64,000 nt of DNA from NCBI GenBank assembly GCA_003864455.1, contig BGZN01000004.1:3125-67124 (forward strand), read 5' to 3'. The position numbers and the translations under genes are program-made. This DNA comes from Candidatus Termititenax aidoneus. GTDB lineage: Bacteria; Margulisbacteria; Termititenacia; Termititenacales; Termititenacaceae. This document shows, in pieces, positions 6,667-54,023 of the stretch; position 1 is the first letter of the stretch, and every line of letters starts with the position of its first letter. Below the pieces are notes generated by a model. The model saw only the letters and a list, made by a program, of their open reading frames with translations. It ran no database searches and had not been told where the DNA came from.

Positions 6667-6670
6667 GAAC

Positions 6671-6698: not shown

Positions 6699-6717
6699 TG
6701 ATACACTACCGAATATG

Positions 6718-14205: not shown

Positions 14206-14805
14206 TCAAAGAATTTTTTTGAGATATTTTTTCAACCAACCGAGATTATTATACTCTGGATTAACTTTAATTAGCGACTTATGTTTTTCCAATACTAGTT
14301 GCGGTTTGGCAGGTTTTTCCTCTGAATTATCAAATAAGAAAAAATTGTCAGCCACATTCATACAATCACACACAAGTTTTAATGATTTGTAATATCTTGA
14401 AACTATTTTATTTCTGGGCACATCATGCCCACCGTGCAGAACACGCTCTTGGATACGCCGGATATTTATTTTAGGATTTTGGGTTACAATGTATATTGCT
14501 GTTATAATGTATCCCTGTGTTTTCACAAACCTCAAAAAATCAAGTTTCTCAAATGTAGAAAAAACCGATTCAAAAGAAAAAGATTTGCTTTCGGCTACTG
14601 CTCTGTAACGCTGCAATTCTGCTAGCTGCATTGCTTTGATATAAATTTCTTTATTATTTTTTAATTTTTCATCGAGATTATTATCCGGACAGATGTAATA
14701 AGCCGGACATTTTTCCTCAAGCATAAATTCATTAACTATGGTTGACTTGCCAGAGCCATTTGGCCCGGCAAACAAAAATATTTCTTTTTGAGAATTGCTC
14801 CCCAT
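14206..14805 (-). CDS. zeta-toxin / P-loop kinase family protein (PF06414-like AAA ATPase)
   Basis: Walker A FLFAGPNGSGKST at the N-terminus. The roughly 200-aa size and organisation are typical of zeta-toxin-like kinases. Confidence 0.5.
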   Translation of the reverse strand: MGSNSQKEIFLFAGPNGSGKSTIVNEFMLEEKCPAYYICPDNNLDEKLKNNKEIYIKAMQLAELQRYRAVAESKSFSFESVFSTFEKLDFLRFVKTQGYIITAIYIVTQNPKINIRRIQERVLHGGHDVPRNKIVSRYYKSLKLVCDCMNVADNFFLFDNSEEKPAKPQLVLEKHKSLIKVNPEYNNLGWLKKYLKKIL

Positions 14806-14808
14806 GTC

Positions 14809-14943
14809 CTATAAAGAAACACCTAGAGCCTTGCGGGTCTGTTTAGCCGCATGATCAAGATTTTTCTTAACCGTGGCATAGGGCGTGATTGTTATGTTAG
14901 TCACGATTTTTTTTATTATCTTGGCTTTTTGAGCATAGGTCAT
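14809..14943 (-). CDS. small ORF (44 aa), candidate cognate antitoxin of the zeta-like protein
   Basis: MTYAQKAKIIKKIVTNITITPYATVKKNLDHAAKQTRKALGVSL. Its stop lies 4 nt before the start of the zeta-like gene, on the same strand. Below the 60-aa cutoff of the ORF track; found by hand. Confidence 0.3.
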   Translation of the reverse strand: MTYAQKAKIIKKIVTNITITPYATVKKNLDHAAKQTRKALGVSL

Positions 14944-14961
14944 TGACGCACCTCTTTCAAA

Positions 14962-15399
14962 TTACTGGCTACTTTTCTGGCATTTCTGGCAGACACCGCG
15001 CACTTTAGCGCCGAAACGCAGCGGTTGAAATTTGTGTCGCGCGGCAATCTTTTTTTGCAGCTTGATAATCGCGCTGTTGTCATACTCAAAAATCTGTCCG
15101 CACTTGACGCAAACCAAATGCCCGTGATCATGATGTTTGTAAAAATGCTCAAAACGAAACACGCCGTCAGCGCCGCGGATGCGCGCGGCCAGTCCAGCCT
15201 GCTCGATCACCTGCATCGCGCGGAAAGTTGACGAGTAGCTGACGTTAGGATGTTTTTTTTTCACCAAATCATGGAGTTCTTCAATCGAAAAATGTCCCTC
15301 GCTGTTGATAAAAACGTCCAGCACATCAAAACGCTGATGCGTGTTGCGCAGTGCGTTTTTGGCGATATAGTCCGCTAAAACCTGGGCTTCTTCTTGCAT
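14962..15399 (-). CDS. Fur-family transcriptional regulator (Fur/Zur/PerR)
   Basis: Winged-helix N-terminus, then HHDHGHLVCVKCGQ ... CQKCQ metal-binding Cys/His motifs. Confidence 0.8.
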   Translation of the reverse strand: MQEEAQVLADYIAKNALRNTHQRFDVLDVFINSEGHFSIEELHDLVKKKHPNVSYSSTFRAMQVIEQAGLAARIRGADGVFRFEHFYKHHDHGHLVCVKCGQIFEYDNSAIIKLQKKIAARHKFQPLRFGAKVRGVCQKCQKSSQ

Positions 15400-15426
15400 G
15401 GGGTTATTATAACAAATCCACGGATT

Positions 15427-15930
15427 TCAGGCACGTGGATTATTCTCTATATTCTTTTCCAGTTTCTTGATTTCCGCTGTATCCTTTGCGGCGGACATTT
15501 TGGCAATATTTTGCAGTTTCCAGTTCAGGGCAGGCAGGTTTTGCAAATTGGGAAATGGCAGTAGTGACCAGTCGGGCTGATTATGCATTAGCGACAATAA
15601 AAAATCCTTATGCTTTGCAGTCAGCGATTTTTTAACCCTATTGATTACAGAAATTCTAACGGCTAATAACTCTTCAAGGCTTATTTCTTCTGTCATACCT
15701 ACAAAGGAATTAACAAAAATATCCTTTATATTCAGCAGATTTGGCTCAAGAATTTCTGAAAATGGACGATTGCCCTGTGCCAGATAAGCAATAAAAACAT
15801 CCATAAGGGAATCCAAATTTTTGTTTTTTTGCAAATAAATCCGCATATCAAATATATCCTTCGGATGTTGGCGGTCAAGCATAGCGTTGAGTTTGCCAGC
15901 GTATAGTTCCAAATAAGACAGACATTTCAC
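15427..15930 (-). CDS. AbiEii/AbiGii-family toxin-like protein, C-terminal portion only (nucleotidyltransferase N-domain absent)
   Basis: LELYAGKLNAMLDRQHPKDIFDMRIYL resembles the conserved E.LA.KL.A...R..RD.YD region in the C-terminal half of DUF1814/AbiEii proteins. The N-terminal GG..L nucleotidyltransferase motif is not present. The gene lies 24 bp downstream of AbiEi. Confidence 0.4.
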   Translation of the reverse strand: MKCLSYLELYAGKLNAMLDRQHPKDIFDMRIYLQKNKNLDSLMDVFIAYLAQGNRPFSEILEPNLLNIKDIFVNSFVGMTEEISLEELLAVRISVINRVKKSLTAKHKDFLLSLMHNQPDWSLLPFPNLQNLPALNWKLQNIAKMSAAKDTAEIKKLEKNIENNPRA

Positions 15931-15954
15931 CGTGGCTTCTTTCTTGAAAATCTG

Positions 15955-16719
15955 TCATCCAAAATTGCTTCCCTCTGGCACGCAGATGGCATATCTGCCT
16001 ATGTATTTGCCACCAACAACAAGTTGCCTTGCCCCTGTGCCTAAATCTATTTTAGTCTCATTCAACTTCTTATACCACGGATGGTTGACGGTAGAGGCAA
16101 CATATAAGAATAGTCTTTTGGCTTTGATAGAAACACATTTTTCCAACAGGGTTTGTAAAAGATTGCTCCTTAAAGACGGGCAGAGTTCCATAAGTTTCAC
16201 AAATTCATCATAATCCGCTTTGGTCGGCACAAGATACGCCATTTCCAGCAAGGCTCTTTCCGGACTGGAAACTATTAGCCCCTCAATATTGACTACTGAA
16301 TCCACAAGCGGTCTTCTGGTCTTGAACAACGGCATTGCCACAACATTATAAATCTTTTGGCTTTTGAGCCATTTCAAATGAGGTGTTCTGCTCTGATCTG
16401 TCCTGAATACATAATAGGTTTGGGCTTTTTTAAGAAAATGCCGCACCCCTTGCAAGTACAAGGCAGATTGCCCACCAAGGACAAAATCCAGTTTGTGCTT
16501 AAATTCCTGTTCTTGCATAGCCTTTATGCTCAAAAGCGGGGAAAGCGGTTTGTCCGTATGTTTATAAACCTCGGGGGCAACCCTTTCCAGCCAATTGCTT
16601 TTACGGTATTTTTGCAATAATTGGCTGGTAAAGCCATTATTTCGCAAATATTTATAGAACAACGGCTGCCCGCGTTCATAGGCTAGTAAAGCTTGCAGTT
16701 TGTTTCTGTTCTTTTTCAT
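15955..16719 (-). CDS. AbiEi-family antitoxin/transcriptional regulator-like protein
   Basis: 254-aa protein with an AbiEi-like N-terminal region and the typical position upstream of an AbiEii-like gene. Confidence 0.5.
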   Translation of the reverse strand: MKKNRNKLQALLAYERGQPLFYKYLRNNGFTSQLLQKYRKSNWLERVAPEVYKHTDKPLSPLLSIKAMQEQEFKHKLDFVLGGQSALYLQGVRHFLKKAQTYYVFRTDQSRTPHLKWLKSQKIYNVVAMPLFKTRRPLVDSVVNIEGLIVSSPERALLEMAYLVPTKADYDEFVKLMELCPSLRSNLLQTLLEKCVSIKAKRLFLYVASTVNHPWYKKLNETKIDLGTGARQLVVGGKYIGRYAICVPEGSNFG

Positions 16720-17071
16720 CAGTATACCTATGGTTTAGTGATAGAGTATCTTATAAAGATAAGCATAATATTTCTTTATATTATGTCAATACGCTATATT
16801 TACGGTATACTAACAAGAGTTTTGGTAAAGAGGCTTGTTAAGAATATCGGGTCATATTTAATTAACTCGATTTTGTTAAATGTTTCAGGGATAGCGCTAC
16901 TACCAGAACCAACCAGAAAAGTTTTACACTCGTTCAATGTGTGCTGGTAATCGTTTTTAACAGATATGCTTAGCAGCTTCCTAAACAGAAAACCCAAAAC
17001 CGCCAATAACGCCACAAGTGGCGTTGCCTTGCGTCTCGGCCAGTCGCTCCCGACCCCGACCCGCCGAAACA

Positions 17072-17192
17072 GTCGCCAAAAAGAAATTAAAAACGCCAAA
17101 TGCAGTGCGGTTTTTTGCCCCCCAACCTGAAACCGTCTTAAAAAACAACCTTGCTCTATTCACCAAAAGCTGTGATTTTGGGTGGTTTGGGG
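17072..17192. repeat. left arm of a 122-bp inverted repeat pair
   Basis: gtcgccaaaaagaaattaaaaacgccaaatgcagtgcggttttttgcccccc...gggtggtttgggg matches the reverse complement of 25542-25663, with 3 small indels or mismatches. Confidence 0.85.
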
Positions 17193-17208
17193 TATAATGG
17201 AGGTGTTA

Positions 17209-17573
17209 TGGTAATCCGCCAAGAATACTTAAATCAACTAAAACTTCTCAAAGATCAAAAGATTATAAAAGTCATCACTGGTATTCGCCGTAGTGGCAAA
17301 TCCACACTTTTGGAACTTTTTCGCGACGAATTGGAAAAGCAAGGTATCAAAAAATCTCAGACTCAATCTTTCAATTTTGAGGAAGAGAAAAATGTGGATC
17401 TGCGAGATTGGCGAAAATTACATCAAACAATAGAGAAAAAACTCGTCTCCACCGAGATGAACTATATTTTTTTTGACGAAATCCAAAAAGTTGAGAAGTT
17501 TGAAGAGGTAGATTTTGTAGTGGAAAAGGGTAGCGGCGTGCGAAAATACTACCAAGTGGCATTGAAAAAATAA
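17209..17573 (+). pseudogene. truncated ATPase (AAA_14/DUF4143 family), N-terminal fragment
   Basis: Walker A VITGIRRSGKSTLLEL and Walker B IFFDEIQ match the about 400-aa DUF4143 ATPases, but the ORF stops after about 120 aa. A TATAAT at 17193-17198 immediately follows the left inverted repeat. Confidence 0.55.
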
Positions 17574-17613
17574 ATGTTGTTGATTGGCTATTAAATAAAG
17601 GAAAACAAAACTT

Positions 17614-19101
17614 ATGAACAACAACGAAACCCAACAACTCGAACGCACCCTCTGGGACGCCGCCAACAAACTGCGTGGCAATATCAACTCCTCCGACTAC
17701 AAATACGTCGTGCTGGGGCTGATTTTCATCAAATATGTTTCCGACGCTTTTGAAACGCAATTCGCCAAATACAAGGTGGAAGGCTTTGATGAGTCCGACG
17801 AGGATTTCCTCCGCGATTACCTGACCAAAGACAACATCTTCTATGTCCCGCCCACTGCTCGCTGGAAATATCTCCAAGACCACGCGAAAACCCCGCAAAT
17901 CGGCGAACTCGTGGACAAGGCAATGGACGCCATCGAAAAAGAGAATAAATCCTTAAAAGGCGTTCTCCCAACCAACTACGGACGCGAAGAATTGGACAAA
18001 ACCCGCCTCGGCGAACTGATTGACCTTTTCACCAACAAAATCCGTTTCGGCGCAGACAGCAAAGACCTGCTCGGGCGCGTCTATGAATACTTTATGGGAA
18101 TGTTTGCCGACAGCGAAGGCAAACACGGCGGCGAGTTTTACACCCCGCGCTCCATCGTCCGGCTGCTCGTAGCAATGATTCAGCCCTTCAAAGGCAGAGT
18201 ATATGACCCTTGCTGCGGCTCCGGCGGAATGTTTGTCAGCAGCGAAGATTTCGTGGCGGAACATTCCGGGCGTATCGGCGACATCGCCATTTACGGACAG
18301 GAACTCAACACCACCACTTGGCGTCTTGCCAAAATGAATATGGCGATTCGCGGCATTGACGCACGCCTCGAACAGGGCGACACCTTGCAGGACGACAAAC
18401 TCAAAGATTTGAAGTTTGATTTCATCCTCGCCAATCCGCCGTTTAATATCAGCGATTGGGGACAAGCCCGCGCCCAGGACGATGTCCGCTGGCAGTTTGG
18501 CACTCCGCCCGCCGGCAATGCCAACTACGCTTGGATACAGCACATCGTCCACCACCTCTCGCCTGCGGGAGTCAGCGGTTTTGTAATGGCAAACGGCACA
18601 ATGACCAGCAACACCTCCGGCGAAGGCGACATCCGCCGCCGCATCGTGGAAGCCGGACTCGTGGACTGCATCATCGCTTGCCCCGACAAACTCTTTTTCA
18701 ATGTTACGCTCCCGTGCTGCCTCTGGTTCGTTTCCCGCGACCGCGCCAACCGCAAAGACAAAACCCTCTTTATTGACGCCCGCAAACTGGGCTTTATGGA
18801 AAGCCGCAAAACCCGCAACCTCGCCGAAAGTGACATTCAAAAAATCACCGCCAAATATCACAAGTTCGTTTCGACCGGTGTAACGACAGATGAACCGGGC
18901 TTTGCCAAAGTTGCCACGCTGGAAGAGATCCGCAAAAACGGCTTCGCCCTCACGCCGGGCTTGTATGTCGGAAGCGAAGCGGTGGCAGACGACGGCGACC
19001 TTGACCAGCAAATCGCCAACCTCAAAGCCGAACTCCTCGCCGGTTTTGAAAAAGGCAGAGCGTTGGAAGAGAAAATTATTTACAACTTAAAGGAAGTCTA
19101 A
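17614..19101 (+). CDS. hsdM: type I restriction-modification system DNA methyltransferase subunit
   Basis: N6-adenine methyltransferase motifs, including the catalytic motif in FILANPPFNISDW, and the HsdM N-terminal domain. Confidence 0.9.
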   Translation: MNNNETQQLERTLWDAANKLRGNINSSDYKYVVLGLIFIKYVSDAFETQFAKYKVEGFDESDEDFLRDYLTKDNIFYVPPTARWKYLQDHAKTPQIGELVDKAMDAIEKENKSLKGVLPTNYGREELDKTRLGELIDLFTNKIRFGADSKDLLGRVYEYFMGMFADSEGKHGGEFYTPRSIVRLLVAMIQPFKGRVYDPCCGSGGMFVSSEDFVAEHSGRIGDIAIYGQELNTTTWRLAKMNMAIRGIDARLEQGDTLQDDKLKDLKFDFILANPPFNISDWGQARAQDDVRWQFGTPPAGNANYAWIQHIVHHLSPAGVSGFVMANGTMTSNTSGEGDIRRRIVEAGLVDCIIACPDKLFFNVTLPCCLWFVSRDRANRKDKTLFIDARKLGFMESRKTRNLAESDIQKITAKYHKFVSTGVTTDEPGFAKVATLEEIRKNGFALTPGLYVGSEAVADDGDLDQQIANLKAELLAGFEKGRALEEKIIYNLKEV

Positions 19102-20210
19102 TGACTACACAAACCGTAAAATTAGGCGAGGTGTGCGAGATAAACAGAGCGTCAATCGGTAAGGATTACGCTTTTGATAGCATTGAATACCTTGATACTT
19201 CCTCGGTAACGAGCGGCACTTTTTCTGAAACTGAACATTTGAATTTGGCTGACGCACCAAGCAGAGCAAAACGCATTGTCCAAAACAACGACATTGTGAT
19301 TTCAACAGTTCGTCCAAATTTAAGGCATTTCGGCATTATTCAAAACGCCAAACCCAATATGGTTGTTTCAACAGGTTTTGCTGTTTTAACAATTGACGAA
19401 AGCAAAGCAGATTACAGTTATATTTATTATCTCCTTACAAAAGACGACATAGTAGATTATTTATCAGCAGTCGCCGACCAAGCAGTTAGCACATATCCCG
19501 CATTCAATCCCTCTGTCTTGGTAAACCTTGACCTCTCCCTTCCTCCTCTCCCAGAGCAGCAGCGCGTAGCGGGGATTTTGGGCAGTTTGGACGAAAAAAT
19601 CGAAAACAACCGCACCCTCGTCCGCACCACCGAAGCCCTCGCCCGCACCATCTTCAAAAAACACATCGCCGCAAATGAGGAAAACAAGGGGTGGGAAACG
19701 GTAAAATTAGGTGATGTTTGCGAAGTTTTTATCGGTGGAGATGCTCATAAATATGACATAGTAAAGCAATCTGATAAAACTCATAACGTACCAGTATTTT
19801 CCAATGGCATTGTCAATGAAGGACTTTACGGTTATACAAAAAACGCAGAAGTAAAGGCGGGTTCGGTGACAGTCAGTGCCAGAGGAACTGTTGGTTTTAT
19901 AAAGCTACGAGATACTGATTTTGTTCCTATTGTCCGTTTGATTGCGGTTATTCCAAAAGAAGACGATGTTAGCGGCTATTTTCTTGAAGCAGTTTTACAA
20001 AAAGAAACAATTAACGCAAGTGGGTCAAGCCAACAACAAATAACGGCACCAATGATTAAAAACCTTAGAATCAAACTCCCTCCCGCCGCCGTCTTGCAAT
20101 CGTTCGATGCCGTCGTAGAGCCATTGTTTGCCGAAATCGGCTTTCTCACCCGCGAAAACCAAACCCTCGCCGCCACCCGCGACAAACTTTTAAGGAAACT
20201 AATTAAATGA
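19101..20210 (+). CDS. hsdS: type I restriction-modification system specificity subunit
   Basis: Two target-recognition domains separated by conserved central (LPPLPEQQRVAGILGSLDEKI) and C-terminal (LPPAAVLQSF...LFAEIGFLTRENQTLAATRDKLLRKLIK) repeats. Start overlaps the hsdM stop. Confidence 0.85.
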   Translation: MTTQTVKLGEVCEINRASIGKDYAFDSIEYLDTSSVTSGTFSETEHLNLADAPSRAKRIVQNNDIVISTVRPNLRHFGIIQNAKPNMVVSTGFAVLTIDESKADYSYIYYLLTKDDIVDYLSAVADQAVSTYPAFNPSVLVNLDLSLPPLPEQQRVAGILGSLDEKIENNRTLVRTTEALARTIFKKHIAANEENKGWETVKLGDVCEVFIGGDAHKYDIVKQSDKTHNVPVFSNGIVNEGLYGYTKNAEVKAGSVTVSARGTVGFIKLRDTDFVPIVRLIAVIPKEDDVSGYFLEAVLQKETINASGSSQQQITAPMIKNLRIKLPPAAVLQSFDAVVEPLFAEIGFLTRENQTLAATRDKLLRKLIK

Positions 20211-22363
20211 GTATGCTAACTAAAATTACAGATTACACTCACAAGTCTTTCAAGAAGTTCACGAACCCACCTGACTTAGAGTTCAGACAAAAAAACATCG
20301 TCTTTGGCTATAATGGCAAAGGCAAAAGTGCTTTTGCTCTCGGTGTTAAAGCGGAATTTCTGAAAGATGCGTCAAAAACCGACGCCCATTTTCGTTTGTT
20401 TAATAAGGAATACATAGGCAAGGATTTAATGCTTGAAAATAGCAATGGAAAACTGAAAGGAGTTAAAGCAAATTTCAGCGAAAAAGATGTAACTGCCGAA
20501 ACCAGAATAAAGGAGTTGGAATCTGAAATTGTTAAGCCAGAAGATATTAAAAAACAAGAAGAGGAAATTCTAAAAATAAGGAAAGATGCAAGAAAAGAAG
20601 TTGATAGTATTCACGACAGGAAAAAAGGTAAAGCCAGAATTGCGAAAAAAGAACAGAGTAAACCTGTTGAAGATATAATTAAACTTTACGAAAGCGACTA
20701 TACGGAAGCATACAAAATTGAAACAGATGATGAAAAGTTACTAAAAACAACAGGCGACGACTCAATCTCGAAAGAAATAGAGAAATTTGAAAGTTTGCAA
20801 AATCTAACTTTCACAACTTATTCAGAGACAGAAATAAACGAATTAAAAGCCATTTTTGAGGAAAAATTTGGCGAAGATGTTGAAATTCCGGCAAATGAAA
20901 TTGTGAATTGGATGTCACAAGGTTTGACTTTGCATAAAGATGGCGACAGTTGCAAAATGTGTGGCGGGAAATTGGATTATCAGTCGGTAAAAACGAAGAT
21001 AGAACAATACAAAGACAACAGAAAACATCAAGCGATTGAGAAATTAAAATCTTTCCAAACTAAACTGAAAAAATCCTCTGATGAGATAGAGAGTATCGCA
21101 AAACAAGAAAAAACCTATTCCGCAATTATTGGGGAATCGGTCAAAGAATCATTTCAAAATATAATTGGAAGCAAAACCTCGTTTGAAGAATTAGACAAAT
21201 CATTGCAAGCGAAGATTGAAGACATCTTATCTTCAAATAGTTTTGATTTTGATAAATTGAAATCTGTTTCTGAATCAATTAAAACAGAAATTGAGAGAAC
21301 ACAGAGGGAGAAAAGCCAACAATTAACCACCTTGCGAAACAAACAAAGCAATTTAGAAACATTGGTCAAAGGTTCAATCGGTTTAGAAGTCAAAAATTCT
21401 CAAACCATCAAAGATAAACTGGCAGAGATTAAGAAAAAAGAAGATGATTTGAAGAAAGCTAAAGATAAAAACACTGAAACTCAAGGAGAAATTCAAAAAC
21501 TGAAAACTTCTAAAAGCCCGACCAAAGATTTTGCAGAGTTTGTATCTCAAATTTTGCAAGACATCAACATCTCGCTGAAAGTTGAAGTAGAAGCGACAGA
21601 CAATAACTACATAATCAAAAGTTCACACGAAGAGGTATTACTTACCATAAGCGACATCAGCGAAGGTGAGAAAAACTTGTTGGCTTTGTTATTCTTTTAC
21701 TACGAACTTTTTAATGATAATAAACAGACCGAAGTCAAAACCGATATTGAGTTGGTTATTGTTGACGACCCCATTTCAAGTATGGACGACGCAAACAAGT
21801 TTTATATTTTGGAATTGATGAAAAACATTTTGAATTTAGAATCGCAACAAGTATTTGTTCTAACTCATAGTTGGGACGATTTCTGCAATCTTTCTTATGG
21901 AAGAAAAACAGGTGAAGCAACCTCAAAGTTTTCGACTATTGAAATCAGAAAGAATAACGGAAAAAGTTATTTAGAAAAAGTTGGAAACATTGAAAAACCA
22001 TATAAGCACTTATTCAAAGAACTCTACGATTTTTCGCAGAAGTCAGAAAAAGATATTGGAACTGATTGTGAAATCTACCATTTTCCGAATGTGATGAGGA
22101 GAGTTTTTGAAGAATGGTATAGTTTTAAGATTGGGAAAGATTTGAATTTAACAAGTAATCAACTTGACCGTCTGGCAAATGATTTTGCTATAACCGATAC
22201 AAATAAAAAAACAAAATTAGGAATGCTACTCAAAGTTTGCAACATTCTTTCTCATTCAATCAACACAACAAAAAACCCGCAAGAAATTCATCAATCATCA
22301 AAATTTTTGATGAAATTGATTGAAGACAACGATAGATTACATTTTAATTCAATGAAGGGATAA
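20207..22363 (+). CDS. RloC/PrrC-like anticodon-nuclease candidate (ABC/SMC-type ATPase with coiled-coil and CxxC insert)
   Basis: Walker A GYNGKGKSAF; a long Glu/Lys-rich coiled coil containing CKMCGG (zinc-hook-like); Walker B/D-loop IVDDPISSMDD and H-loop LTHSWDD; C-terminal MRRVFEEW...NILSHS fits the PrrC anticodon-nuclease R-x3-E...H motif. Located between hsdS and hsdR, as prrC is. Confidence 0.55.
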   Translation: MSMLTKITDYTHKSFKKFTNPPDLEFRQKNIVFGYNGKGKSAFALGVKAEFLKDASKTDAHFRLFNKEYIGKDLMLENSNGKLKGVKANFSEKDVTAETRIKELESEIVKPEDIKKQEEEILKIRKDARKEVDSIHDRKKGKARIAKKEQSKPVEDIIKLYESDYTEAYKIETDDEKLLKTTGDDSISKEIEKFESLQNLTFTTYSETEINELKAIFEEKFGEDVEIPANEIVNWMSQGLTLHKDGDSCKMCGGKLDYQSVKTKIEQYKDNRKHQAIEKLKSFQTKLKKSSDEIESIAKQEKTYSAIIGESVKESFQNIIGSKTSFEELDKSLQAKIEDILSSNSFDFDKLKSVSESIKTEIERTQREKSQQLTTLRNKQSNLETLVKGSIGLEVKNSQTIKDKLAEIKKKEDDLKKAKDKNTETQGEIQKLKTSKSPTKDFAEFVSQILQDINISLKVEVEATDNNYIIKSSHEEVLLTISDISEGEKNLLALLFFYYELFNDNKQTEVKTDIELVIVDDPISSMDDANKFYILELMKNILNLESQQVFVLTHSWDDFCNLSYGRKTGEATSKFSTIEIRKNNGKSYLEKVGNIEKPYKHLFKELYDFSQKSEKDIGTDCEIYHFPNVMRRVFEEWYSFKIGKDLNLTSNQLDRLANDFAITDTNKKTKLGMLLKVCNILSHSINTTKNPQEIHQSSKFLMKLIEDNDRLHFNSMKG

Positions 22364-35190: not shown

Positions 35191-35600
35191 TTTCGATGCA
35201 TTTTACAGGTATATTTTATCGATAAGCGGGTAATTACTGTTTTGTCAGTAGATGATTTTTGAGGAAGTAAAAATATTTGTTTATGCTTACGCGCGGCAAA
35301 TATCTTTACTTGCGCTCGGCGGCTGAGTTTCGGACGGTGAGCTTGGGACGGTGAGCTTGTCGAACCGTCGAACCGTCAAAGCCATCGTAAAACGGTCATT
35401 TCGACATCTCGACTTCGCTCGATGACCACAGGCTCAATGACCGAGTAGGTTACGTTCGCTACGGGCAAAGATATTTGCCGCGCTATTTGTGAAAAAACGA
35501 AAAAATGGAGTTTTGTCATGAAAAAGTTTTTAAATTTAAGATCTGTTAATAATTGCCCCCCCCCCATTTTTGGCGTAGGTACGCTGAAAAGCTAAGTTTT
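35191..35600. repeat. copy A of a roughly 430-bp repeated intergenic element (conserved ends, variable inverted-repeat core, poly-C tract)
   Basis: 5' block ttcgatgcattttacaggtatattttatcgataagcgggtaattact and 3' block ggagttttgtcatgaaaaagtttttaaatttaagatctgttaataattgCCCCCCCCCCatttttggcgtaggtacgc are shared with 43425-43870. Inner inverted repeat gcgcggcaaatatctttac / gcaaagatatttgccgcgc. Confidence 0.8.
35539..35575 (+). promoter_or_regulatory. candidate promoter with a C10 homopolymer in the -35/-10 spacer (TTGCCC-17-TAGGTA)
   Basis: ttgccc at 35553-35558 and taggta at 35576-35581 flank a spacer dominated by a C10 run (35556-35565). It is about 120 nt upstream of the 35698 ATG, and a good Shine-Dalgarno aggagg is present. 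Confidence 0.35.
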
Positions 35601-35697
35601 CTCCACTCTCTATTTTCTCCTAATAAACATCGAATGTTAAACGCCGCTGCCGCGGTTGTCTGAGATTTGGTGTTTAAAAAAAATTTAGGAGGAATTT

Positions 35698-37983
35698 ATG
35701 AGTATACAAACTATAAATAATAACGGAGTCGACTCTGGGGTTTTTGTCAAACAGCAGACCGGAAGAAGGGTTTCGGGAGAAGAGCGCAGGCTTAATGATG
35801 CTCTGTCCAGAATAAATCTAGACAGGGGCAACGATAATATTTATGGAGGATTTAATATCAGTAATGAAGAAATGCAGGCGGCGATTAGGCAAGACAGGGA
35901 GAATACGAGCGCCAATGTAGCCACTGTTTTTAAGAAACTTAACGAGACAGATGCGAGAATACTTTTCAATAGTTTTGACAGCGAGACTCAGGCACAATTG
36001 ATGAGCCATCTTTATGGAAGCAGAGGCAACGAAAATTTTACAAATATGATAAATAGCGAGCTGGACAATCCACAATCCAAACTTAATACCACCGTTTTAA
36101 ACGGTGAGCAAACCGGTGCTATTGCCGCCAGAGCTCTGACCAAAGGTTTGTTGGTTGCCGCCACTGGCCTCTTCGCCTCCGGCTCTACAGCCGAGACCGC
36201 TCAAAACCGTTTGACCAACTTATTGACAGGAGAGCATTCCGGAGTATTTCAAACGGCAATGCGTCAAGTGTATCAAAAATCTGAGCCCGGCAATGGTTTC
36301 ATTTCAAACTCTTCTAACAACGCCAGGGACGAGATCGAAAGATTTTTAAAGAAAACGGATAATCCAGAGCTGGCCGTTTTTAAAGCGGAGTTTACGCACA
36401 GCGGGATTACCAGCAGCGGCGCAGTCGTGCGCGCAGACAAGAACGCAGACGGCAAATATGATCTTAATGAATTGAAGAGTATGAATTCTGAACAAATCCT
36501 GCGTTTGAGTTGTACGGATGAACATTTTTTAGACAACATAGAAATACAAGGACCCAACGGCCCCTTAACGGGAGAGGCCAAAATCGACGCGCTGAAAAAT
36601 ATTTTCACGGAAATTGCGGCTAAAGAAAGAATGGACGGCGTGGCAATAGCTGTTTTTGTGGGAGCTACTTTGGCTACATTGACCGCTGGATTAGCGTCAG
36701 GCGTGGTAGCCACTGTGCTTGCGGTGGAAGGAACAGCTATGGCCACTCTTACCACAGGCGGCGTCATGACTGGCCGGCCAGCGCAGGCTTTGGAAAATAT
36801 CGCCAAGGAACAAATTGCTTCCGGCAATCCCCAGCAAATCCAAAGTTTTTTAGAAAGGTCAGACGCCTTTGGCAGATTGGGAGAAGACCGGACGAACAAC
36901 ATCATCGATAGTTTGGCTAACCTTCCGGACACCAAAATTGAAGCATTTTATACAGCGGTGGAAAATTTGCCGCCGGAACAACGCGCTAATATCTACGCAA
37001 GGATAGCCAAGGCTTTGCCCGACATGCAGCAAGGAAGGTATATAAATAATCCTAACAGCAGCAGAGGAGAACAAATAGAAAATAGGCGTTCAAACCCTAA
37101 CGGAGCGGCACGGCTTGTCAGGCTAAATCCAGAGAACAAATTTCAAGAGCTAAAGAGAATAATGGACACTGGAACCACAATTGAGCTAGCAAGTTACCTT
37201 GAAAAAAATCCGCCTACAAAAGCCCAAATCGCCCGCCTTACTCCGGACGATAAAGCTAAATTAGTCAATGCGGCCGAGGGATTGCAGAGTTTTGGTTCTC
37301 CTGCAGGAGATACAATAATTGCCTTAATGAGAGAAACACCAGACATGCAGTCTGAGATGCTTGCTGCTGTTCTAAATATGGATACTGCTACCAAAGAGCA
37401 GATAGTTACTACAACGCCGTCGCCCAAGAGCGAGACAATTGTTAGTGAACTGATTATTGAAGAAGAAGGTGGATTAACGAAAACCACCGATCAAGAGTCG
37501 GTTTTAAATTTATTCACCACAAACCAAAATGGAAACATCGAAGATGATAATTCAGCGCCAACAAATACAATTGAAGAAAACCAACAGCCCCCACCAGTCT
37601 CAGCAAACATAGCACGAAATGAACAAGCCGCTTCAAGCAGAAATTACCAAGTTTCTACTGTAACTTATCAAGATAACCCAAAATCCTCTGAGACGCAGTT
37701 TATTCCCAGGACTTACGGAATAACGCCACCATCTAATGGCAATGGAATTGAATATCTTAACAATGGCCAACGGATAATGACTGTGGGGAACGATACATTT
37801 GAGTTTGACAGCACATTCCAAGACAATAAAATAAAACTTGGTGGTCGGGAATATACTGTTCAAGGATCAAACCCAGTACATTTTAGAGACAATAATGGCA
37901 ACACTCACTATCTTGGCTGGGACGCTGCGACTAAAAGTTGGACTTATAGAAAAGAAGAAGGAGTGAACCTCAACGCCGCTTAA
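35698..37983 (+). CDS. large hypothetical protein (761 aa) with no signal peptide, a polar Asn/Ser/Thr-rich N-terminus and a central hydrophobic segment
   Basis: ORF with a strong ribosome-binding site; central hydrophobic stretch GVAIAVFVGATLATLTAGLASGVVATVLAVEGTAMATLTTGGVMTG (nt about 36637-36775); no recognizable catalytic motif. Confidence 0.5.
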   Translation: MSIQTINNNGVDSGVFVKQQTGRRVSGEERRLNDALSRINLDRGNDNIYGGFNISNEEMQAAIRQDRENTSANVATVFKKLNETDARILFNSFDSETQAQLMSHLYGSRGNENFTNMINSELDNPQSKLNTTVLNGEQTGAIAARALTKGLLVAATGLFASGSTAETAQNRLTNLLTGEHSGVFQTAMRQVYQKSEPGNGFISNSSNNARDEIERFLKKTDNPELAVFKAEFTHSGITSSGAVVRADKNADGKYDLNELKSMNSEQILRLSCTDEHFLDNIEIQGPNGPLTGEAKIDALKNIFTEIAAKERMDGVAIAVFVGATLATLTAGLASGVVATVLAVEGTAMATLTTGGVMTGRPAQALENIAKEQIASGNPQQIQSFLERSDAFGRLGEDRTNNIIDSLANLPDTKIEAFYTAVENLPPEQRANIYARIAKALPDMQQGRYINNPNSSRGEQIENRRSNPNGAARLVRLNPENKFQELKRIMDTGTTIELASYLEKNPPTKAQIARLTPDDKAKLVNAAEGLQSFGSPAGDTIIALMRETPDMQSEMLAAVLNMDTATKEQIVTTTPSPKSETIVSELIIEEEGGLTKTTDQESVLNLFTTNQNGNIEDDNSAPTNTIEENQQPPPVSANIARNEQAASSRNYQVSTVTYQDNPKSSETQFIPRTYGITPPSNGNGIEYLNNGQRIMTVGNDTFEFDSTFQDNKIKLGGREYTVQGSNPVHFRDNNGNTHYLGWDAATKSWTYRKEEGVNLNAA

Positions 37984-40292: not shown

Positions 40293-41453
40293 GTGAATTT
40301 GTGGCCAAAAATTAGCGGATTTCTTTGTTTGCTGTCCGCGTTTGCCCTGGCCTCATTTCCGGTTGATCTTTTGGACAAAACTTCCGGTCTAGCCGTCCTG
40401 AGCTGCGGCGGAGCAGGAGCGGCGCGTACCGACGGCGTCGGCGCGGCTTACTGGAATCCGGCGGGGTTGGCTTTTTCCGGCAAAAGCGGCTTTGACCTGA
40501 CCTATTATCAAAAACTGGGTTTCGTGAATCACTCTTCACTGGACGCCGTGCTGCTGCTCGGCGGCGACATCTTGCCGCTCGGTTTCAATCTGGTGCAGGA
40601 GGGCATTAACAGTATTCCGCGCACCAGCTCGGCCGGCGGACTGCCGGTGGAAGAAGGCTCTTTCGCCGACGAGTACCGCTTTATTAATTTTTCTACAGCT
40701 TTTCGCCTCGATCACGGACTGTACGGCGGCCTCAATTACAAAATCATTTCTCATACTATCGACAAATACCGCGCCGAAGGCTTTGCTGTCGATCTGGGTT
40801 TAATCCAGATCATGAGCCAAAACTTGACGCTGGGCGCGACTTTTCGCAATCTTTTTTCCGCGCTGGACTGGACTACCGGTTTGCAGGAATATCTGGCGCG
40901 CAAATTGACCGCCGGAGTTGCCTATCATCTGCCGCTGGCCGATTTTGAAAATTATTTGTACGCCGATCTCGACATATACAGCGAAGAAGAGCGCGGCTGG
41001 GCGCTGGGCGCGGAGTCCTGGCTGCTGAAAAATGTTTTCTGTCTGCGCGGCGGCTACAACAGCGGCCAAGAATTCACGCTCGGCACCGGGCTGCGTTACA
41101 ATGATTTTCACTGCGATCTAGCTCTGCTTTTCAATCCGGACAAAGTGGAAATAGACAATTCTTTTTTGTTCGGGCTGGGCTTTGATTTTCAACTGCCGCG
41201 CAATTCCGCGGCGCGCGCCGTCAGCGACGCCAGTTTTCAGCCGGAAATCAGCGTATTTCGTAAACGCATTATTGTCAGCGATTTGCAGCCGGAGAAAATT
41301 CAAGAAATCGCCGTGCTTGATCCTGCTGACAATGTGCTTTCCCTGCCGGTCCGCAAAACTATTGAAATTCCGGCGCCGGCCACCGGCAATTACACGCTTT
41401 TTTTCCAACTCAAAAATGAAAAAATCATTAAACAAACCGTCCTGGTTGAGTAA
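40293..41453 (+). CDS. outer-membrane beta-barrel protein, UPF0164/PorV-like family (putative)
   Basis: Signal peptide; GAGAARTDGVGAAYWNPAGLA resembles the conserved N-terminal motif of PorV/UPF0164 OMPs; amphipathic beta-strands. Confidence 0.35.
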   Translation: MNLWPKISGFLCLLSAFALASFPVDLLDKTSGLAVLSCGGAGAARTDGVGAAYWNPAGLAFSGKSGFDLTYYQKLGFVNHSSLDAVLLLGGDILPLGFNLVQEGINSIPRTSSAGGLPVEEGSFADEYRFINFSTAFRLDHGLYGGLNYKIISHTIDKYRAEGFAVDLGLIQIMSQNLTLGATFRNLFSALDWTTGLQEYLARKLTAGVAYHLPLADFENYLYADLDIYSEEERGWALGAESWLLKNVFCLRGGYNSGQEFTLGTGLRYNDFHCDLALLFNPDKVEIDNSFLFGLGFDFQLPRNSAARAVSDASFQPEISVFRKRIIVSDLQPEKIQEIAVLDPADNVLSLPVRKTIEIPAPATGNYTLFFQLKNEKIIKQTVLVE

Positions 41454-43424: not shown

Positions 43425-43870
43425 TTCGATGCATTTCACAGGTATATTTTCTCGATAAGTGGGTAATTACTTTTGTGTAAGTTTGTGAGCAGGTGAACTC
43501 TTTTAGAGCGAATATGTTTGCTTGCACGCGGAGAATATCTTTACCTGCGCGCGTGGTGGCTTCTCACTTAACTTCGCAGCCACGCTGCTTGTTAAGTTCG
43601 AACCAGACGCGCTCCGGCAAAATATTCTCCGCGCTTAACTTAAAGTAAACATGTGATTTTAGGCAGTGAAAATATTTGCTTCAAGCGGCCGTAACCTTCA
43701 GTGCTATGCCGTGGCCGCGGAAGTAAATATTTTCACTGCCGGAAAATTAGATGTGTTTTTTGAAAAATTTGTACAAAACAAAAAACGGAGTTTTGTCATG
43801 AAAAAATTTTTAAATTTAAGATCTGTTAATAGTTGCCCCCCTCCCCCCCCATTTTTCGTGTAGGCACGCG
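43425..43870. repeat. copy B of the repeated intergenic element (C6-T-C8 tract)
   Basis: Shares its end blocks with 35191-35600. Nested inverted repeats gcgcggagaatatcttt/aaaatattctccgcgc and cagtgaaaatatttgcttcaagcggccg/cggccgcggaagtaaatattttcactg. Contains a REP-like palindrome also seen at 1535 and 50632. Confidence 0.8.
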
Positions 43871-43983
43871 GAAAATCTAGAGTTTTTCACAAACGCGCTA
43901 AACAATAAAACCCTGTCCGGCTAAAGCCGGTTCGGGGTTTTTTGCGTTTGTGATAAATCTAAAAAAGAAAGGGGGTGTTTTTT

Positions 43984-44319
43984 ATGGTCGATTTCAATCC
44001 TAATTTTCAGATTAGTGGGTTTAAGCCAAAATTTGACTTAAACGAAGTCAAATTTGGGGGCAATCATTCTGACAGCACCAAAAAGTTTGCCAATAATGTG
44101 CATCAGAAAATTCAAGACAGCTTTGCCGAACAGGACATTAAGGCAAAAGTAGTTGTTAGCGCCGGATTTAAAGATGGACAACCAATACTTTACATAACGG
44201 CATATGACAATGGCAAACCTGTAATTAAGGACGCTGAAAACGCAATACAGAACAATTTGCCTGACGGCGCTTCTTTGACTGTCTATGACCACAAAGCTGA
44301 AATTCTTTTGCGTGAATAA
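43984..44319 (+). CDS. hypothetical small protein (111 aa)
   Basis: ORF with ribosome-binding site aaagggggtg, followed by a terminator. Confidence 0.4.
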   Translation: MVDFNPNFQISGFKPKFDLNEVKFGGNHSDSTKKFANNVHQKIQDSFAEQDIKAKVVVSAGFKDGQPILYITAYDNGKPVIKDAENAIQNNLPDGASLTVYDHKAEILLRE

Positions 44320-50554: not shown

Positions 50555-50768
50555 AAGGCCACAATAATAGCATAAAATAGCCGCTCTAAGCATTTATAAA
50601 CTTGTCACTTCGGCCGCTAAAGCGGCCTTGTGGCTCTCACTTAACTTCGCGGCGGCGCCGCTTGTTAAGTTCGAGTGCGCGGAAGAGGACGACTGCGCCG
50701 GCTACCGCCGGCTTGTGGCCCTAATTTTTTTCTCTATACTTTTTACGTATAGTCATTTCAAACATATT

Positions 50769-50853
50769 AAATTACTTGGTGCGCGGAAGAGGACTCGAAC
50801 CTCCAAGCCTTGCGGCACAAGATCCTTAGTCTTGCGCGTATACCAATTCCGCC
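50769..50853 (-). tRNA. tRNA-Leu (anticodon TAG)
   Basis: Reverse complement GCGCGGATGGCGGAATTGGTATACGCGCAAGACTAAGGATCTTG...GGTTCGAGTCCTCTTCCGCGCACCA; long variable arm. Confidence 0.85.
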
Positions 50854-50911
50854 ATCCGCGCGTCAAAGAGCAAACAACTATACAACAAGAGCAAAATTTT
50901 TTCTAGAAAAA

Positions 50912-51437: not shown

Positions 51438-52358
51438 ATGTATATGGCAAGTAATTACACAGACAGTTATGACGGCATAGCGAGCCGGGAGCCGTTGTCG
51501 GCGGAGAAAGTAACAGCGGCGCTGAACAAAATGGAAAAAGTGGCCAATAAAGTATCCAAGGCGGAATGGGAAGCAAATGCTGGTAGTGAGCAGAGCAGCG
51601 ACAGCAAATATCCTACCTGCGCGGCGGTCAATAACGCGGTCGAGGCAGTCAGCGCTAAGTTGAGCGACGATGCGCAGGCGCTTAATATTAAGATAGATGA
51701 AATGAACTTTGCTGCGGAGAAAGCAATAAACAAGATCCAGACAACCGAGACATGGGAGGACAATAAAAGCAGTAATGAAAAATACCCCAGCTGCAAGGTG
51801 GTCAATGCGGCAATCACGGAAAAGTTCGAGGGCGCGGAAAAAATAGTTAATAGAGTGGATTACACGCTATGGGATAGCAACACGGATGAGGATGCAAAAT
51901 ACCCCACCTGCGGGGCGGTTACTCATGCGATCAATCTCGCAATTGAGGCGATTGATGCTATGATCGCGGATGTCAATGAGAGGATCGCGACTGTTGTCCA
52001 CGACGATATTCCGCTTCTCAATGAGGAGATCGCGACTGTCAATGAGAGGATCGCGACTGTTGTCGACGACGATATTCTGCTTCTCAATGAGAGGCTCACT
52101 GCTGTTCAGGGCGAGCTTACGGCGCTGTCCGACGCGGCGGAAAGAACAGCCAATAAGGTCATTAAAGAAAATTGGTCAAGCAATAAGACCAATGCTACAA
52201 AATACCCCAGCTGCGCGGCTGTGCAGTTGGCCATAGAAACGGCCGCCATTAATACCGTTAATAATGTTAAAACAACTTCAATATCCAGCTCTTCAACGGA
52301 TGACAAATTCCCGACGGCCAAGGCTGTCCATGACTATTTCTGGAGTGTATTTCATTAG
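51438..52358 (+). CDS. repeat protein with a recurring KYP(S/T)C-x-AV module and a coiled-coil segment
   Basis: Modules at ...SDSKYPTCAAVNNAVEAV, ...NEKYPSCKVVNAAITE, ...DAKYPTCGAVTHAINLA, ...ATKYPSCAAVQLAIETA, ...DDKFPTAKAVHDYF. Internal roughly 45-bp DNA repeats (51982-52026 and 52048-52092) encode the hexadecapeptide repeats IATVV(H/D)DDI(P/L)LLNE(E/R). Confidence 0.5.
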   Translation: MYMASNYTDSYDGIASREPLSAEKVTAALNKMEKVANKVSKAEWEANAGSEQSSDSKYPTCAAVNNAVEAVSAKLSDDAQALNIKIDEMNFAAEKAINKIQTTETWEDNKSSNEKYPSCKVVNAAITEKFEGAEKIVNRVDYTLWDSNTDEDAKYPTCGAVTHAINLAIEAIDAMIADVNERIATVVHDDIPLLNEEIATVNERIATVVDDDILLLNERLTAVQGELTALSDAAERTANKVIKENWSSNKTNATKYPSCAAVQLAIETAAINTVNNVKTTSISSSSTDDKFPTAKAVHDYFWSVFH

Positions 52359-52376: not shown

Positions 52377-54023
52377 ATGGCTAGTGATTACGAGGGTAGT
52401 TATACCGGCATAGAACAAGGTAAAGTAGCCTACGCGCGGGACTTAACGAACGCGCTGAACAAAATGGAAAGAGTGGCCAATAAAGTAACCACCGCGGAGG
52501 AATGGGACATCTATGCCAATAAAATCAGTGAGGATAAATACCCCGCCTGCAATATTGTCAGCGCCGCGGGCGCGGCGGTAAAGACGTCTATGGATACCCA
52601 GCTTTCGGAATTATCCAGCCAGGCGACCGCGGTAGATGACGCTACGGAAAAGACAGCCAATAAAGTAACTTCAGGCGACTGGGCAGACAATAAGGAAGAT
52701 GATAACAAATATCCGAGCTGCAAGGCGGTTGATCAGGCGCTCACGGGAACAACCGGCTTCGAGCAAAGTATGAATATAATAAAATACGAATACACAGAGG
52801 AGAAAAACAGCTGGGGAAGAAACACGCGGAATGATTTAAAATATCCCAGCTGCAAGGTTGTGAATACCGTGGTCGGGGAGAATATCATCAGCGCCAAGAC
52901 CGCCGAGGTCGAGGGTAGTAACAATTTGGTAAATGGTATTAATACTTCGGTAGATGACAGCAACGCTTCGGTAGATGACAGCAATGCTTCGGTAGACGAT
53001 ATTAACGCTTCAGTCGATAATATTAACGCTTCGGTAGACAAAATCAGTGAGGATATTGAGGAATTGGACGGCGACACGGAAAAAATTGCCAATAAAGTCA
53101 TGGAAGGAACGCTAAAGGATTATGAGGACAGTGATGACAAATATCCGAGCTGTCCGGTTGTTGATGAGGGTCTAACCGCGGTTTTTAGCCAGCTAGACTT
53201 TGGCAAAATCACATCAGTTTCCGCGGATTCGACAGACATTTTGCTGCCAACGGCCGGAGCGGTGTATAGATTTGTACAGTCTATAATAGGCGTCTCGTAC
53301 GGCTCTATAGTTTCCAACGTTCATGTGGATAACAACGCATTTCATACAGTGATGGGTTACTATACTGGGAATAGTTATCAGCAGGATGCGGGCTATAATT
53401 GGTACGAGGCCGTGCAGTATTGCGCTTATCTGACGGTGCAGGAAAACGATGTGTCCCAGGCGGTCAAGGATTATATAATACAATATTATCTTGTGGACAG
53501 ATCCAGCCTTAACATAACCAATTACGATCAGACCATTGGAGATAAATGCAGCAATTATCTGAAATATGCTCTGATCACACCCGGATGTTATCGTCTGCCG
53601 ACCAGCACGGAGTGGACAGGCGTTTACAACCAAATTCTCAAGTACAGGTCTGGCCTGCACACTGAGACGTATTCAAATGATCCTTCAGTTGTTTTCAGTT
53701 CCACGAGCGATCATTATTGTCTTGAATGGTGCATAGATGCTAATAGTAGTTCCGATAAGATGCTGGGCGGCAAAGCTTTTAAGAATGGGAATTATCAGGC
53801 TGAACGCATTGTGCGCGGTGGTGTGGCCGGCAAATCCGAAGACAGAGGCCTCGACCCCACCCGCTGGTATTTTCGGCTGGCAGATTATATCTACCGCGCG
53901 GCGTCGTACTCCAGGGCAGGCCAATTAACACTAATTGGCAAAGGTAGCGGTGAAATTGAATACACTCACCACTACATACCGTACTCCGCGCACGGCATGC
54001 GTTTAGTCCAAACAGTAATCTAA
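52377..54023 (+). CDS. repeat protein (same KYPxC-AV modules) with in-frame 21-bp tandem repeats and a C-terminal FGE-sulfatase (SUMF1/DUF323)-like domain
   Basis: N-terminus is paralogous to the preceding gene (...ANKV...KYPACNIV, KYPSCKAVDQAL, KYPSCKVVNTVV, KYPSCPVVDEGL). The C-terminal NWYEAVQYCAYLT...CYRLPTSTEWTG...RIVRGG resembles the W.DA.AYC.WL / YRLPTEAEWE / R.LRGG blocks of FGE-sulfatase domains. Confidence 0.5.
   Translation: MASDYEGSYTGIEQGKVAYARDLTNALNKMERVANKVTTAEEWDIYANKISEDKYPACNIVSAAGAAVKTSMDTQLSELSSQATAVDDATEKTANKVTSGDWADNKEDDNKYPSCKAVDQALTGTTGFEQSMNIIKYEYTEEKNSWGRNTRNDLKYPSCKVVNTVVGENIISAKTAEVEGSNNLVNGINTSVDDSNASVDDSNASVDDINASVDNINASVDKISEDIEELDGDTEKIANKVMEGTLKDYEDSDDKYPSCPVVDEGLTAVFSQLDFGKITSVSADSTDILLPTAGAVYRFVQSIIGVSYGSIVSNVHVDNNAFHTVMGYYTGNSYQQDAGYNWYEAVQYCAYLTVQENDVSQAVKDYIIQYYLVDRSSLNITNYDQTIGDKCSNYLKYALITPGCYRLPTSTEWTGVYNQILKYRSGLHTETYSNDPSVVFSSTSDHYCLEWCIDANSSSDKMLGGKAFKNGNYQAERIVRGGVAGKSEDRGLDPTRWYFRLADYIYRAASYSRAGQLTLIGKGSGEIEYTHHYIPYSAHGMRLVQTVI
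52947..53054 (+). repeat. five 21-bp in-frame tandem repeats encoding VDD(S/I)NAS heptapeptides
   Basis: gtagatgacagcaacgcttcg / gtagatgacagcaatgcttcg / gtagacgatattaacgcttca / gtcgataatattaacgcttcg / gtagacaaaatcagt... Confidence 0.8.

Follow-up and report, generated by a model that had tools for sequence, protein, structure and literature searches.

Homopolymer contingency loci are known from the poly-C promoters of Bordetella fim, the poly-C/G tracts of Neisseria opc and porA and the poly-G tracts of Treponema pallidum tpr, while in Neisseria opa (pentamer repeats) and pilC (poly-G) the repeats lie within the region coding for the signal peptide. In the vlp-type families of Mycoplasma hyorhinis, a conserved 5′ region with a homopolymer precedes divergent surface-protein genes. 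Here we describe a poly-C-containing cassette of about 550 nt upstream of the gene for a 761-aa orphan protein, NO1_0417, in Candidatus Termititenax aidoneus, an uncultured Margulisbacterium that is attached to ectosymbiotic spirochetes of termite-gut protists. The gene and its control region are located in a 64,000-nt stretch of genomic DNA (assembly GCA_003864455.1, contig BGZN01000004.1, positions 3,125 to 67,124 of the forward strand), hereafter called the window, to which all coordinates refer unless another contig is named. Our preferred and tentative reading is that the gene is switched stochastically and that its fast-evolving product belongs to the cell envelope or is exported, where it would serve contact with the spirochete or protist partner.

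The cassette resembles the fim, opc/porA and tpr loci, where a long C/G run of varying length is found just 5′ of genes for variable envelope proteins. The tract of those loci, however, is part of a promoter spacer, whereas that of the cassette lies inside a conserved short open reading frame (ORF) which has its own Shine-Dalgarno (SD) sequence and is followed by structured RNA. The principle of opa and pilC is approached by one copy of the cassette, on contig L005, in which the leader ATG and a run of 14 C are in frame with a surface-protein ORF devoid of an SD sequence. Unlike opa and pilC, the leader ORF of the 761-aa gene is separate from the main ORF, at a distance of about 100 nt and with an in-frame stop, so that the tract could act on this gene only indirectly, by coupling or unmasking rather than by fusion of frames. 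The vlp families have in common with it a conserved 5′ cassette that is repeated ahead of unrelated or highly divergent gene bodies, each copy with its own tract length, but vlp lipoproteins have conserved signal peptides whereas the 761-aa protein has none, and the cassette belongs to a diderm Margulisbacterium. In Helicobacter pylori, an mRNA leader also contains a homopolymer of variable length, the G-repeat of the tlpB-hp0102 leader, with which the small RNA (sRNA) RepG pairs for graded control (PMC8295292). There too the repeat controls translation of host-interaction genes, but it is paired by an sRNA whereas the cassette tract is potentially translated. A phase-variable locus for a variable surface protein is of an already known kind; what appears to be new is a portable cassette whose homopolymer belongs to a leader ORF distinct from the main one and precedes a hairpin that masks the SD sequence.

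A poly-C leader cassette upstream of NO1_0417

The ORF at 35698-37983 on the forward strand comprises 761 codons, begins with ATG and carries AGGAGG 5 nt 5′ of this ATG. The coordinates given in a preliminary description, made from the DNA sequence alone, were exact, and the translated product was found to be identical to GBR72961.1 (‘hypothetical protein NO1_0417’, Candidatus Termititenax aidoneus). With its strong SD sequence, the ORF is a real gene. A longer N-terminus is impossible because an in-frame TAG is present at 35686-35688, just 5′ of the ORF.

Seven copies of the cassette were identified in four Margulisbacteria genomes. In the window it is composed of module A, nested palindromes, a short ORF with an SD sequence, a long C-run and a small hairpin, all on the forward strand, and the same order is found upstream of related genes on L001, a short metagenome contig, and at L006, a locus of the Margulisbacteria metagenome-assembled genome (MAG) GCA_031268855.1. 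Module A (35193-35238; TCGATGCATTT..GTATATTTT.TCGATAAG.GGGTAATTACT) is the most conserved upstream block, with a second window copy at 43426-43471 and further ones on L001, L003, L004, L005 and L006. The nested palindromes (35265-35483), with arms GCGCGGCAAATATCTTT and AAAGATATTTGCCGCGC 159 nt apart, form the variable part of the cassette. Related but different palindromes fill the corresponding middle part of every copy (43527-43745 in the window, 470-680 in L001, 9480-9770 in L006, and L005), and their number and sequence vary from copy to copy. They may be REP-/MITE-like insertions or insulators. A 40-nt palindromic unit of the second window copy (43562-43601) recurs at 50635-50674 (90% identical), beside a tRNA gene at 50780-50861, so at least some of these palindromes are dispersed repeats.

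The leader ORF (35507-35595) encodes MKKFLNLRSVNNCPPPIFGVGTLKS and has its own SD sequence (GGAG, 35507-35510), an ATG at 35518 and a TAA at 35593-35595. Its SD sequence and first codons read GGAG-N7-ATG AAA AAA TTT TTA AAT, and its SD-ATG-AAAAA core was kept in all seven copies, the SD sequence and ATG being invariant. The poly-C run, 10 C read as proline codons inside this ORF, occupies 35556-35565. Homopolymer phase-variable loci are marked by a run of some 8-9 nt or more, situated in the promoter, in the leader or early in the coding region; we found the 10-C tract in the leader and tract lengths that differ between copies and genomes: 10 for the 761-aa gene, 6+T+8 for the second window copy, and 14, 15 and 15 for others. 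Directly after the run, a small hairpin (UUUUUGGCGU-AGGU-ACGCUGAAAA, 35567-35590) has pairs that are kept in four sequences, some of them through changes.

At the 761-family loci only, the cassette is followed by a 5′ untranslated region (5′UTR) of about 130 nt ending in AGGAGGAATTTATG. RNA folding of this region gave a long hairpin (35605-35703) in which an anti-SD strand, UUUCUCCUAA (35614-35623), pairs with UUAGGAGGAA (35685-35694), covering the SD sequence AGGAGG at 35687-35692, with an outer stem that extends to the start codon. The window fold has a minimum free energy of -47.2 kcal/mol (z = -4.63; 0 of 200 shuffled sequences were as stable), and an SD-masking fold was also obtained for L006 (z = -4.05) and L001 (z = -1.75).

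Based on this arrangement, we propose that slippage in the hypermutable C-run would change the reading frame of the leader, and that the frame would decide whether ribosomes cross the anti-SD strand and unmask the SD sequence of the 761-aa gene. The three frames that can follow the C-run behave alike across loci: one ends at a conserved TAG stop (...FLA*/FFV*), one is of medium length and one stays open for about 33 codons. In the window, the long frame crosses the anti-SD strand and ends at a TGA (35661-35663). The 10 C of the assembly bring the leader to its stop at 35593-35595 before this strand is reached, whereas 8 or 11 C would carry it through. The assembled state is therefore predicted to be OFF or of low expression, because its leader ends before the anti-SD strand. 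By eye only, a sigma-70 promoter with the C-run as its spacer (TTGCCC-17-TAGGTA) was also considered, and was not settled on: the -10 element is poor and the spacers of the other copies would measure 22-25 nt.

The second window copy (43426-43863) contains module A, palindromes, a leader ORF (43798-43863) and a poly-C run interrupted by one T (6C-T-8C, 43836-43850), and lies 5′ of the gene for a 111-aa orphan, NO1_0424 (43984-44319, forward strand). The two window copies have in common, besides module A, an identical 45-mer (35507-35551 and 43787-43831; no match in 100 shuffles), in agreement with the shared upstream element of the preliminary description. The idea drawn from it there, of a co-regulated pair of genes, was too narrow, given that the element belongs to a cassette with multiple copies; each carries its own poly-C length, so the copies would switch independently. 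Between the second copy and NO1_0424, at the place of the SD-masking hairpin of the 761-family loci, the window has an intrinsic-terminator-like hairpin (43909-43945; a longer stem that includes CCGGC-TAAA-GCCGG, followed by T6).

When genome contigs were scanned with module A, three further copies (L003, L004 and L005) were detected in the Margulisbacteria MAG JAIRZV01. The contigs of two of them (L003 1-110 and L004 1-110) end inside the poly-C run, followed by poly-G junk, and as assemblies break at the run, the number of copies in MAGs is probably underestimated. The third (L005, 3-3340, reverse strand) directly precedes an ORF of more than 1089 codons, whose product combines a classical signal peptide with Ig-like repeats of the Big_13/fn3 type. 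At its 14 C, the L005 leader (MKKVLNLIAVLPPPPPRVFRVV) is in frame with this surface protein of more than 1089 aa; here the C-run would set the frame of a leader fused directly to the main ORF, and the copy is a candidate direct translational phase switch. An exact 33-mer pattern of the cassette gave no match in genome or metagenome collections, nor did module A in metagenomes or viral contigs.

A lineage-restricted orphan protein and its relatives

The 761-aa protein is acidic (pI 4.97) and contains one Cys in 761 residues, compared with 1.08% in 17 other window ORFs. The GC content at third codon positions (GC3) is 0.42 for its gene and 0.41 for that of its relative P0006, against about 0.6 for neighbouring genes in both genomes. 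A lack of signal peptide and a polar N-terminus had been noted in the preliminary description, and both were borne out: within the first 53 residues, Kyte-Doolittle (KD) hydropathy over 9-residue windows peaks at 0.76, and residues 1-130 comprise 14% Asn and 9% Ser. Residues 72-120 (35911-36057) showed a sub-threshold match to the helical repeat MgtE_N (PF03448; E = 1e-4, 23.2 bits against a Pfam gathering cut-off of 25.9), and shared ‘LPxxQRxxI’-type motifs were seen by eye only. An EF-hand-type calcium-binding loop motif, DKNADGKYDLNE, fits a PROSITE PS00018-like regular expression at residues 247-258 (36436-36471), with a 2.4% chance of occurrence in shuffled sequences; no EF-hand match was obtained in the Pfam scan.

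The sole strongly hydrophobic stretch, rich in Ala, Gly, Thr and Val, spans residues 312-357 (36631-36768), with 19-residue KD values of up to 2.06 and with K309/R311 and R359 as flanks. In a single-sequence AlphaFold2 model (mean pLDDT 45.8), it is folded into two helices (315-333 and 337-353, pLDDT below 50), and the single central stretch of helical-hairpin size that had been described was thus recovered at 46 residues. The coiled regions described alongside it were not: the 31 modelled helices are short (median 12, maximum 25 residues) and appear helical-repeat-like, not coiled coil, and residues 360-571 (36775-37410; pLDDT 60-83) contain instead weak internal repeats (E = 0.001-0.01) with degenerate ‘NPxxxAxIARLxP(D/E)xK’ motifs. 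The C-terminal third consists, as had been proposed, of a polar region followed by beta structure. Specifically, a low-complexity linker rich in T/N/E/S/Q (residues 572-683; 37411-37746), modelled as disordered, leads into an all-beta domain (residues 684-754; 37747-37959), the beta region being modelled over 684-753. When this domain was modelled by AlphaFold2 from two sequences, its pLDDT was 63, with a core at 70-82. Overall, the protein comprises a polar N-terminus, a putative EF-hand-type calcium loop, degenerate helical repeats of MgtE_N/FliG-like type, a hydrophobic hairpin specific to T. aidoneus, the linker modelled as disordered and, at its C-terminus, a conserved beta domain of some 55-85 residues.

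The protein is a true orphan, a lineage-restricted accessory protein of Termititenax-group Margulisbacteria from the termite gut. A word-indexed search of 5.8 billion clusters matched it to itself only, and an exhaustive HMMER scan of 1.84 billion representatives retrieved a single true relative, P0002, over residues 700-755 only. No further members were retrieved with a profile of the C-terminal domain, and no paralogue is present in the 64-kb window. The Pfam scan gave nothing above cut-off (MgtE_N was best), the NCBIfam scan only noise and the PADLOC scan no match; sub-threshold family matches for the protein and its partners include MgtE_N, XopAW and CU044_5270. A sequence search of the PDB yielded nothing better than E = 0.9. 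Foldseek comparison with the PDB yielded only generic alpha-solenoids (ARM/HEAT-like, E of at least 0.028) for the whole model, and no fold match for the C-terminal domain (best E = 0.09, TM about 0.25). The protein therefore shows, as described, no detectable catalytic motif, with no significant family match in Pfam, NCBIfam, PHROGs, PADLOC or the PDB. The sequence, profile and fold searches likewise gave no homology to a cytoplasmic structural or enzymatic family, which the preliminary description had named as a result that would count against its proposal of a secreted protein. The family, including its C-terminal beta domain without detectable fold relative, appears to be new.

A resemblance to membrane-targeting proteins of phages or tailocins had also been suggested. 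A long, mostly helical protein that lacks a signal peptide and has a hydrophobic segment rich in Ala and Gly would suit such an origin, for example from a tape-measure-like protein. Nothing meaningful came, however, from PHROGs, from tblastn against phages and plasmids or from viral contigs. The sole PHROG match was weak and to an unrelated ‘transcriptional repressor’ (E = 8e-4), tblastn gave no match in 50,697 phage and 72,556 plasmid records, and neither the protein in IMG/VR nor the cassette in phage, plasmid or viral collections (IMG/VR included) was matched. The gene is placed between an outer-membrane-protein gene and plsC-gltX, with the housekeeping genes pgeF, plsC and gltX nearby. We consider a phage origin highly improbable.

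Three relatives were compared with the 761-aa protein. P0002 (532 aa) is encoded 3′ of a 312-aa ORF, P0005, on L001 (also L002), and P0006 is encoded by a single 868-aa ORF at L006, which covers the equivalents of both P0005 and P0002 and shares 53% identity with P0002. By BLASTP, only the last ~51 residues of the 761-aa protein could be aligned to P0002 and P0006 (53% and 51% identity, E = 1e-14 and 4e-12), residues 703-753 being the sole conserved part. Similarly, an hhalign comparison of the P0006 family with the 761-aa protein gave a probability of 97% at the C-terminus and aligned nothing else. The relatives do resemble it in style: they lack a signal peptide, have a polar N-terminal region (MNINI...), are acidic and contain few Cys. 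The 761-aa protein, P0005 (residues 45-56) and P0006 (residues 47-58) each have one loop that is PROSITE-like for EF-hands, the chance per protein in shuffles being 2.4% and 3.8% for the two family branches; the Pfam EF-hand scores of P0006 (21.8 bits) and P0005 (19.2 bits) are below the cut-off of about 25, and P0005 also has a weak MgtE_N match (14.3 bits). The hydrophobic hairpin is missing from P0002, P0005 and P0006, whose highest 19-residue KD values are 1.36 (in a Pro/Ala-rich linker), 0.61 and 0.76, respectively. As it is absent from the only homologues, the hairpin is not a defining feature of the family.

At the DNA level, conservation is much higher in the non-coding region than in the gene under its control. 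The cassette is 62-73% identical in 150-nt windows between our locus and L006 and L001, and blastn aligned L001 to 35491-35706 with 79% identity over 232 nt (E = 3e-49); the 5′UTR, SD sequence and first codons of the 761-family loci are conserved alongside it. The coding body of the 761-aa gene is 35-50% identical to those of L006 and L001, which is indistinguishable from a shuffled control (30-48%), while the coding regions of L006 and L001 share 67-82% identity outside the linker. The three 761-family loci (the window, L006 and L001) have unrelated genomic neighbourhoods, with fba and rpoC at L006 and, by resemblance seen by eye only, a small atpZ-like gene at L001, and no housekeeping gene is common to the window and the related loci. 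On these comparisons, the window gene has kept its control region, SD sequence, start and C-terminal domain while its body was replaced or diverged beyond detection.

The same pattern bears on whether the ORF might be a non-functional or decaying accessory gene, or a selfish module open by chance, behind a repeat that has no regulatory meaning. Its status as a singleton in databases, its atypical GC3, the palindromic repeats that fill the upstream region and the split of the L001 counterpart into ORFs of 312 and 532 aa, where P0006 is a single 868-aa ORF, would all be expected of such a gene. On the other hand, 761 open codons at about 44% GC are far beyond chance, the strong SD sequence, 5′UTR structure and C-terminal domain are conserved in three genomes, and the 67-82% identity between L006 and L001 indicates that the family persists. 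Decay is consequently judged improbable.

Export, membrane tethering and partner contact

An envelope or extracellular role is favoured because the same cassette precedes, in a related genome, a surface protein with a signal peptide and Ig-like repeats. More specifically, our preferred reading of a switched, fast-evolving envelope or exported protein is built on this control module in common with a surface protein, on the conserved termini around a hypervariable body and on the acidic, Cys-poor composition with a putative calcium loop.

The main rival is a membrane-tethered scaffold or adaptor on the cytoplasmic face, with the hairpin in the inner membrane and the helical arms and C-terminal domain in the cytoplasm. 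By the positive-inside rule, basic flanks lie on the cytoplasmic side, and K309/R311 and R359 at the two ends of the hairpin fit one with both ends inside. The lack of a signal peptide is in line with this arrangement, as are the ARM/HEAT-like body and the sub-threshold match to MgtE_N, an intracellular domain family. Tethering is not a family trait, however, as none of P0002, P0005 and P0006 has the hairpin. In addition, EF-hand-type loops, near-zero Cys, a low pI and an extended disordered linker probably occur more often in extracellular bacterial proteins, and phase-variable cassettes usually control surface products, as one copy of this cassette does in preceding the Ig-like surface protein. 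We regard a tethered cytoplasmic-face protein as less likely than our preferred reading.

The type III secretion system (T3SS) translocators IpaB, SipB and YopB and the chlamydial Inc proteins have no Sec signal, a polar N-terminus and a hydrophobic hairpin segment of about 40-60 residues. The 761-aa protein is like them in its lack of a Sec signal, its polar N-terminus and its central hairpin-capable segment, which led the preliminary description to propose a translocator- or effector-type substrate (of a T3SS or flagellar, type I (T1SS), type IV (T4SS) or type VI (T6SS) system) whose hairpin would insert into a target membrane. Part of this architecture stood, namely the absence of a signal peptide and the hairpin-sized segment of 46 residues; the coiled regions did not, as no long coiled coils were modelled, and the hairpin, on which the translocator idea mainly rested, is absent from the homologues. 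The N-terminus, rich in Asn, Ser, Thr and Ile and with no hydrophobic core in the 761-aa protein, P0005 and P0006, would also suit a secretion substrate. Unlike IpaB, SipB, YopB and Inc, however, the protein has no sequence or fold similarity to translocators or effectors (no Pfam or NCBIfam translocator match at E of 1 or below; the XopAW match, E = 0.23, is noise), its flanking helices reach at most 25 residues in the low-confidence model, and no class II chaperone, T3SS or ABC transporter/membrane fusion protein (ABC/MFP) gene was found among the ORFs scanned in the 64-kb window.

The acidic pI, low Cys content, single putative calcium loop and conserved C-terminus give a general resemblance only to T1SS cargo, and direct reading of the sequence gave no GGxGxD RTX repeats, as no GG fits. 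Cargo of the type IX secretion system (T9SS) was defined by an N-terminal Sec signal peptide together with a C-terminal domain common to many proteins of the genome; the 761-aa protein has neither a signal peptide nor a C-terminal domain of the TIGR04183/TIGR04131 type in NCBIfam. The earlier statement that the window holds no secretion apparatus was right for the ORFs scanned apart from a borderline case, a PorV/PorQ-family barrel of the outer membrane, encoded at 40293-41453, whose NCBIfam NF033709 score of 89.8 bits falls just below the cut-off of 90. This barrel, 2.3 kb from the 761-aa gene, is the sole secretion-related signature among those ORFs. Some Margulisbacteria carry flagellar genes (PMC11607428, PMC7018530), so a flagellar-type export route is conceivable. 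Overall, we consider a translocator or effector substrate unlikely.

Several observations weigh against our preferred reading of a switched envelope or exported protein. With regard to switching, the assembled leaders give no uniform picture (those of the window and L006 stop before the anti-SD strand and that of L001 reads through), and differences in tract length were seen only between copies and genomes, in assembled sequence. A weak promoter-like site (TTGTCA-18-TAAGAT, 35513-35542), not conserved in L001, L005 or L006, would start transcription 3′ of the leader ATG, and the open long frame, at about 33 codons in non-independent loci, could be due to chance. As for export, the protein has no signal peptide or recognisable export signal of any known system (no Sec/Tat, RTX or T9SS-type C-terminal domain), and no secretion genes are adjacent to its gene among the ORFs scanned. 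Its C-terminal domain is confined to the 761 family among the 1.84 billion representatives and is for this reason not a general sorting tag. Lastly, a cytoplasmic protein tethered to the membrane would also account for the basic residues on either side of the hairpin.

A bolder form of the preferred reading would make the portable poly-C leader cassette a previously undescribed phase-variation module that acts by SD unmasking or by direct leader fusion, and that switches hypervariable, non-classically exported proteins for spirochete attachment, the 761-aa protein with a membrane-inserting hairpin among them. We think it unlikely that all of these elements hold together.

Other features of the window and implications for Termititenax

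Several other regions of the window were also noted. Two adjacent paralogous orphan proteins are encoded at 51438-52358 and 52377-54023, with seven copies of a ~55-nt repeat containing AAATA(T/C)CC..(C/G)CTG(C/T), which encodes, by eye, roughly Lys-Tyr-Pro-x-Cys; no significant Pfam or PHROG family was found for either protein. Three consecutive ORFs on the reverse strand (10701-13912; 567, 143 and 322 aa) have no Pfam match and form an orphan cluster beside a P-type ATPase. A 36-nt copy of the 3′ part of a tRNA gene (7165-7237) is located at 6666-6701, 504 nt away, and tandem repeats of 161 nt and 121 nt follow at 7280-7738; together, the tRNA-fragment copy and tandem repeats (6666-6701, 7165-7738) may be an integration scar. 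Further on, a low-GC island (14206-22363), with a GC3 of 0.30-0.40 for most ORFs, holds an AbiEi antitoxin with a 718-aa ORF (GC 0.33) immediately 3′ of it, and some of its genes look restriction-modification-like, by eye only. This island is likely a horizontally acquired defence region.

If our preferred reading of a switched, partner-contact protein is true, the genes behind the shared hypermutable cassette would be obvious candidates for the machinery by which Termititenax contacts its partners. One of the cassette genes has a clear surface signature and one evolves beyond recognition between close relatives, which makes them concrete targets for microscopy and metatranscriptomics. The switch itself, if confirmed, would represent an unusual kind of phase variation, one that acts on translation, and a first example in the phylum.

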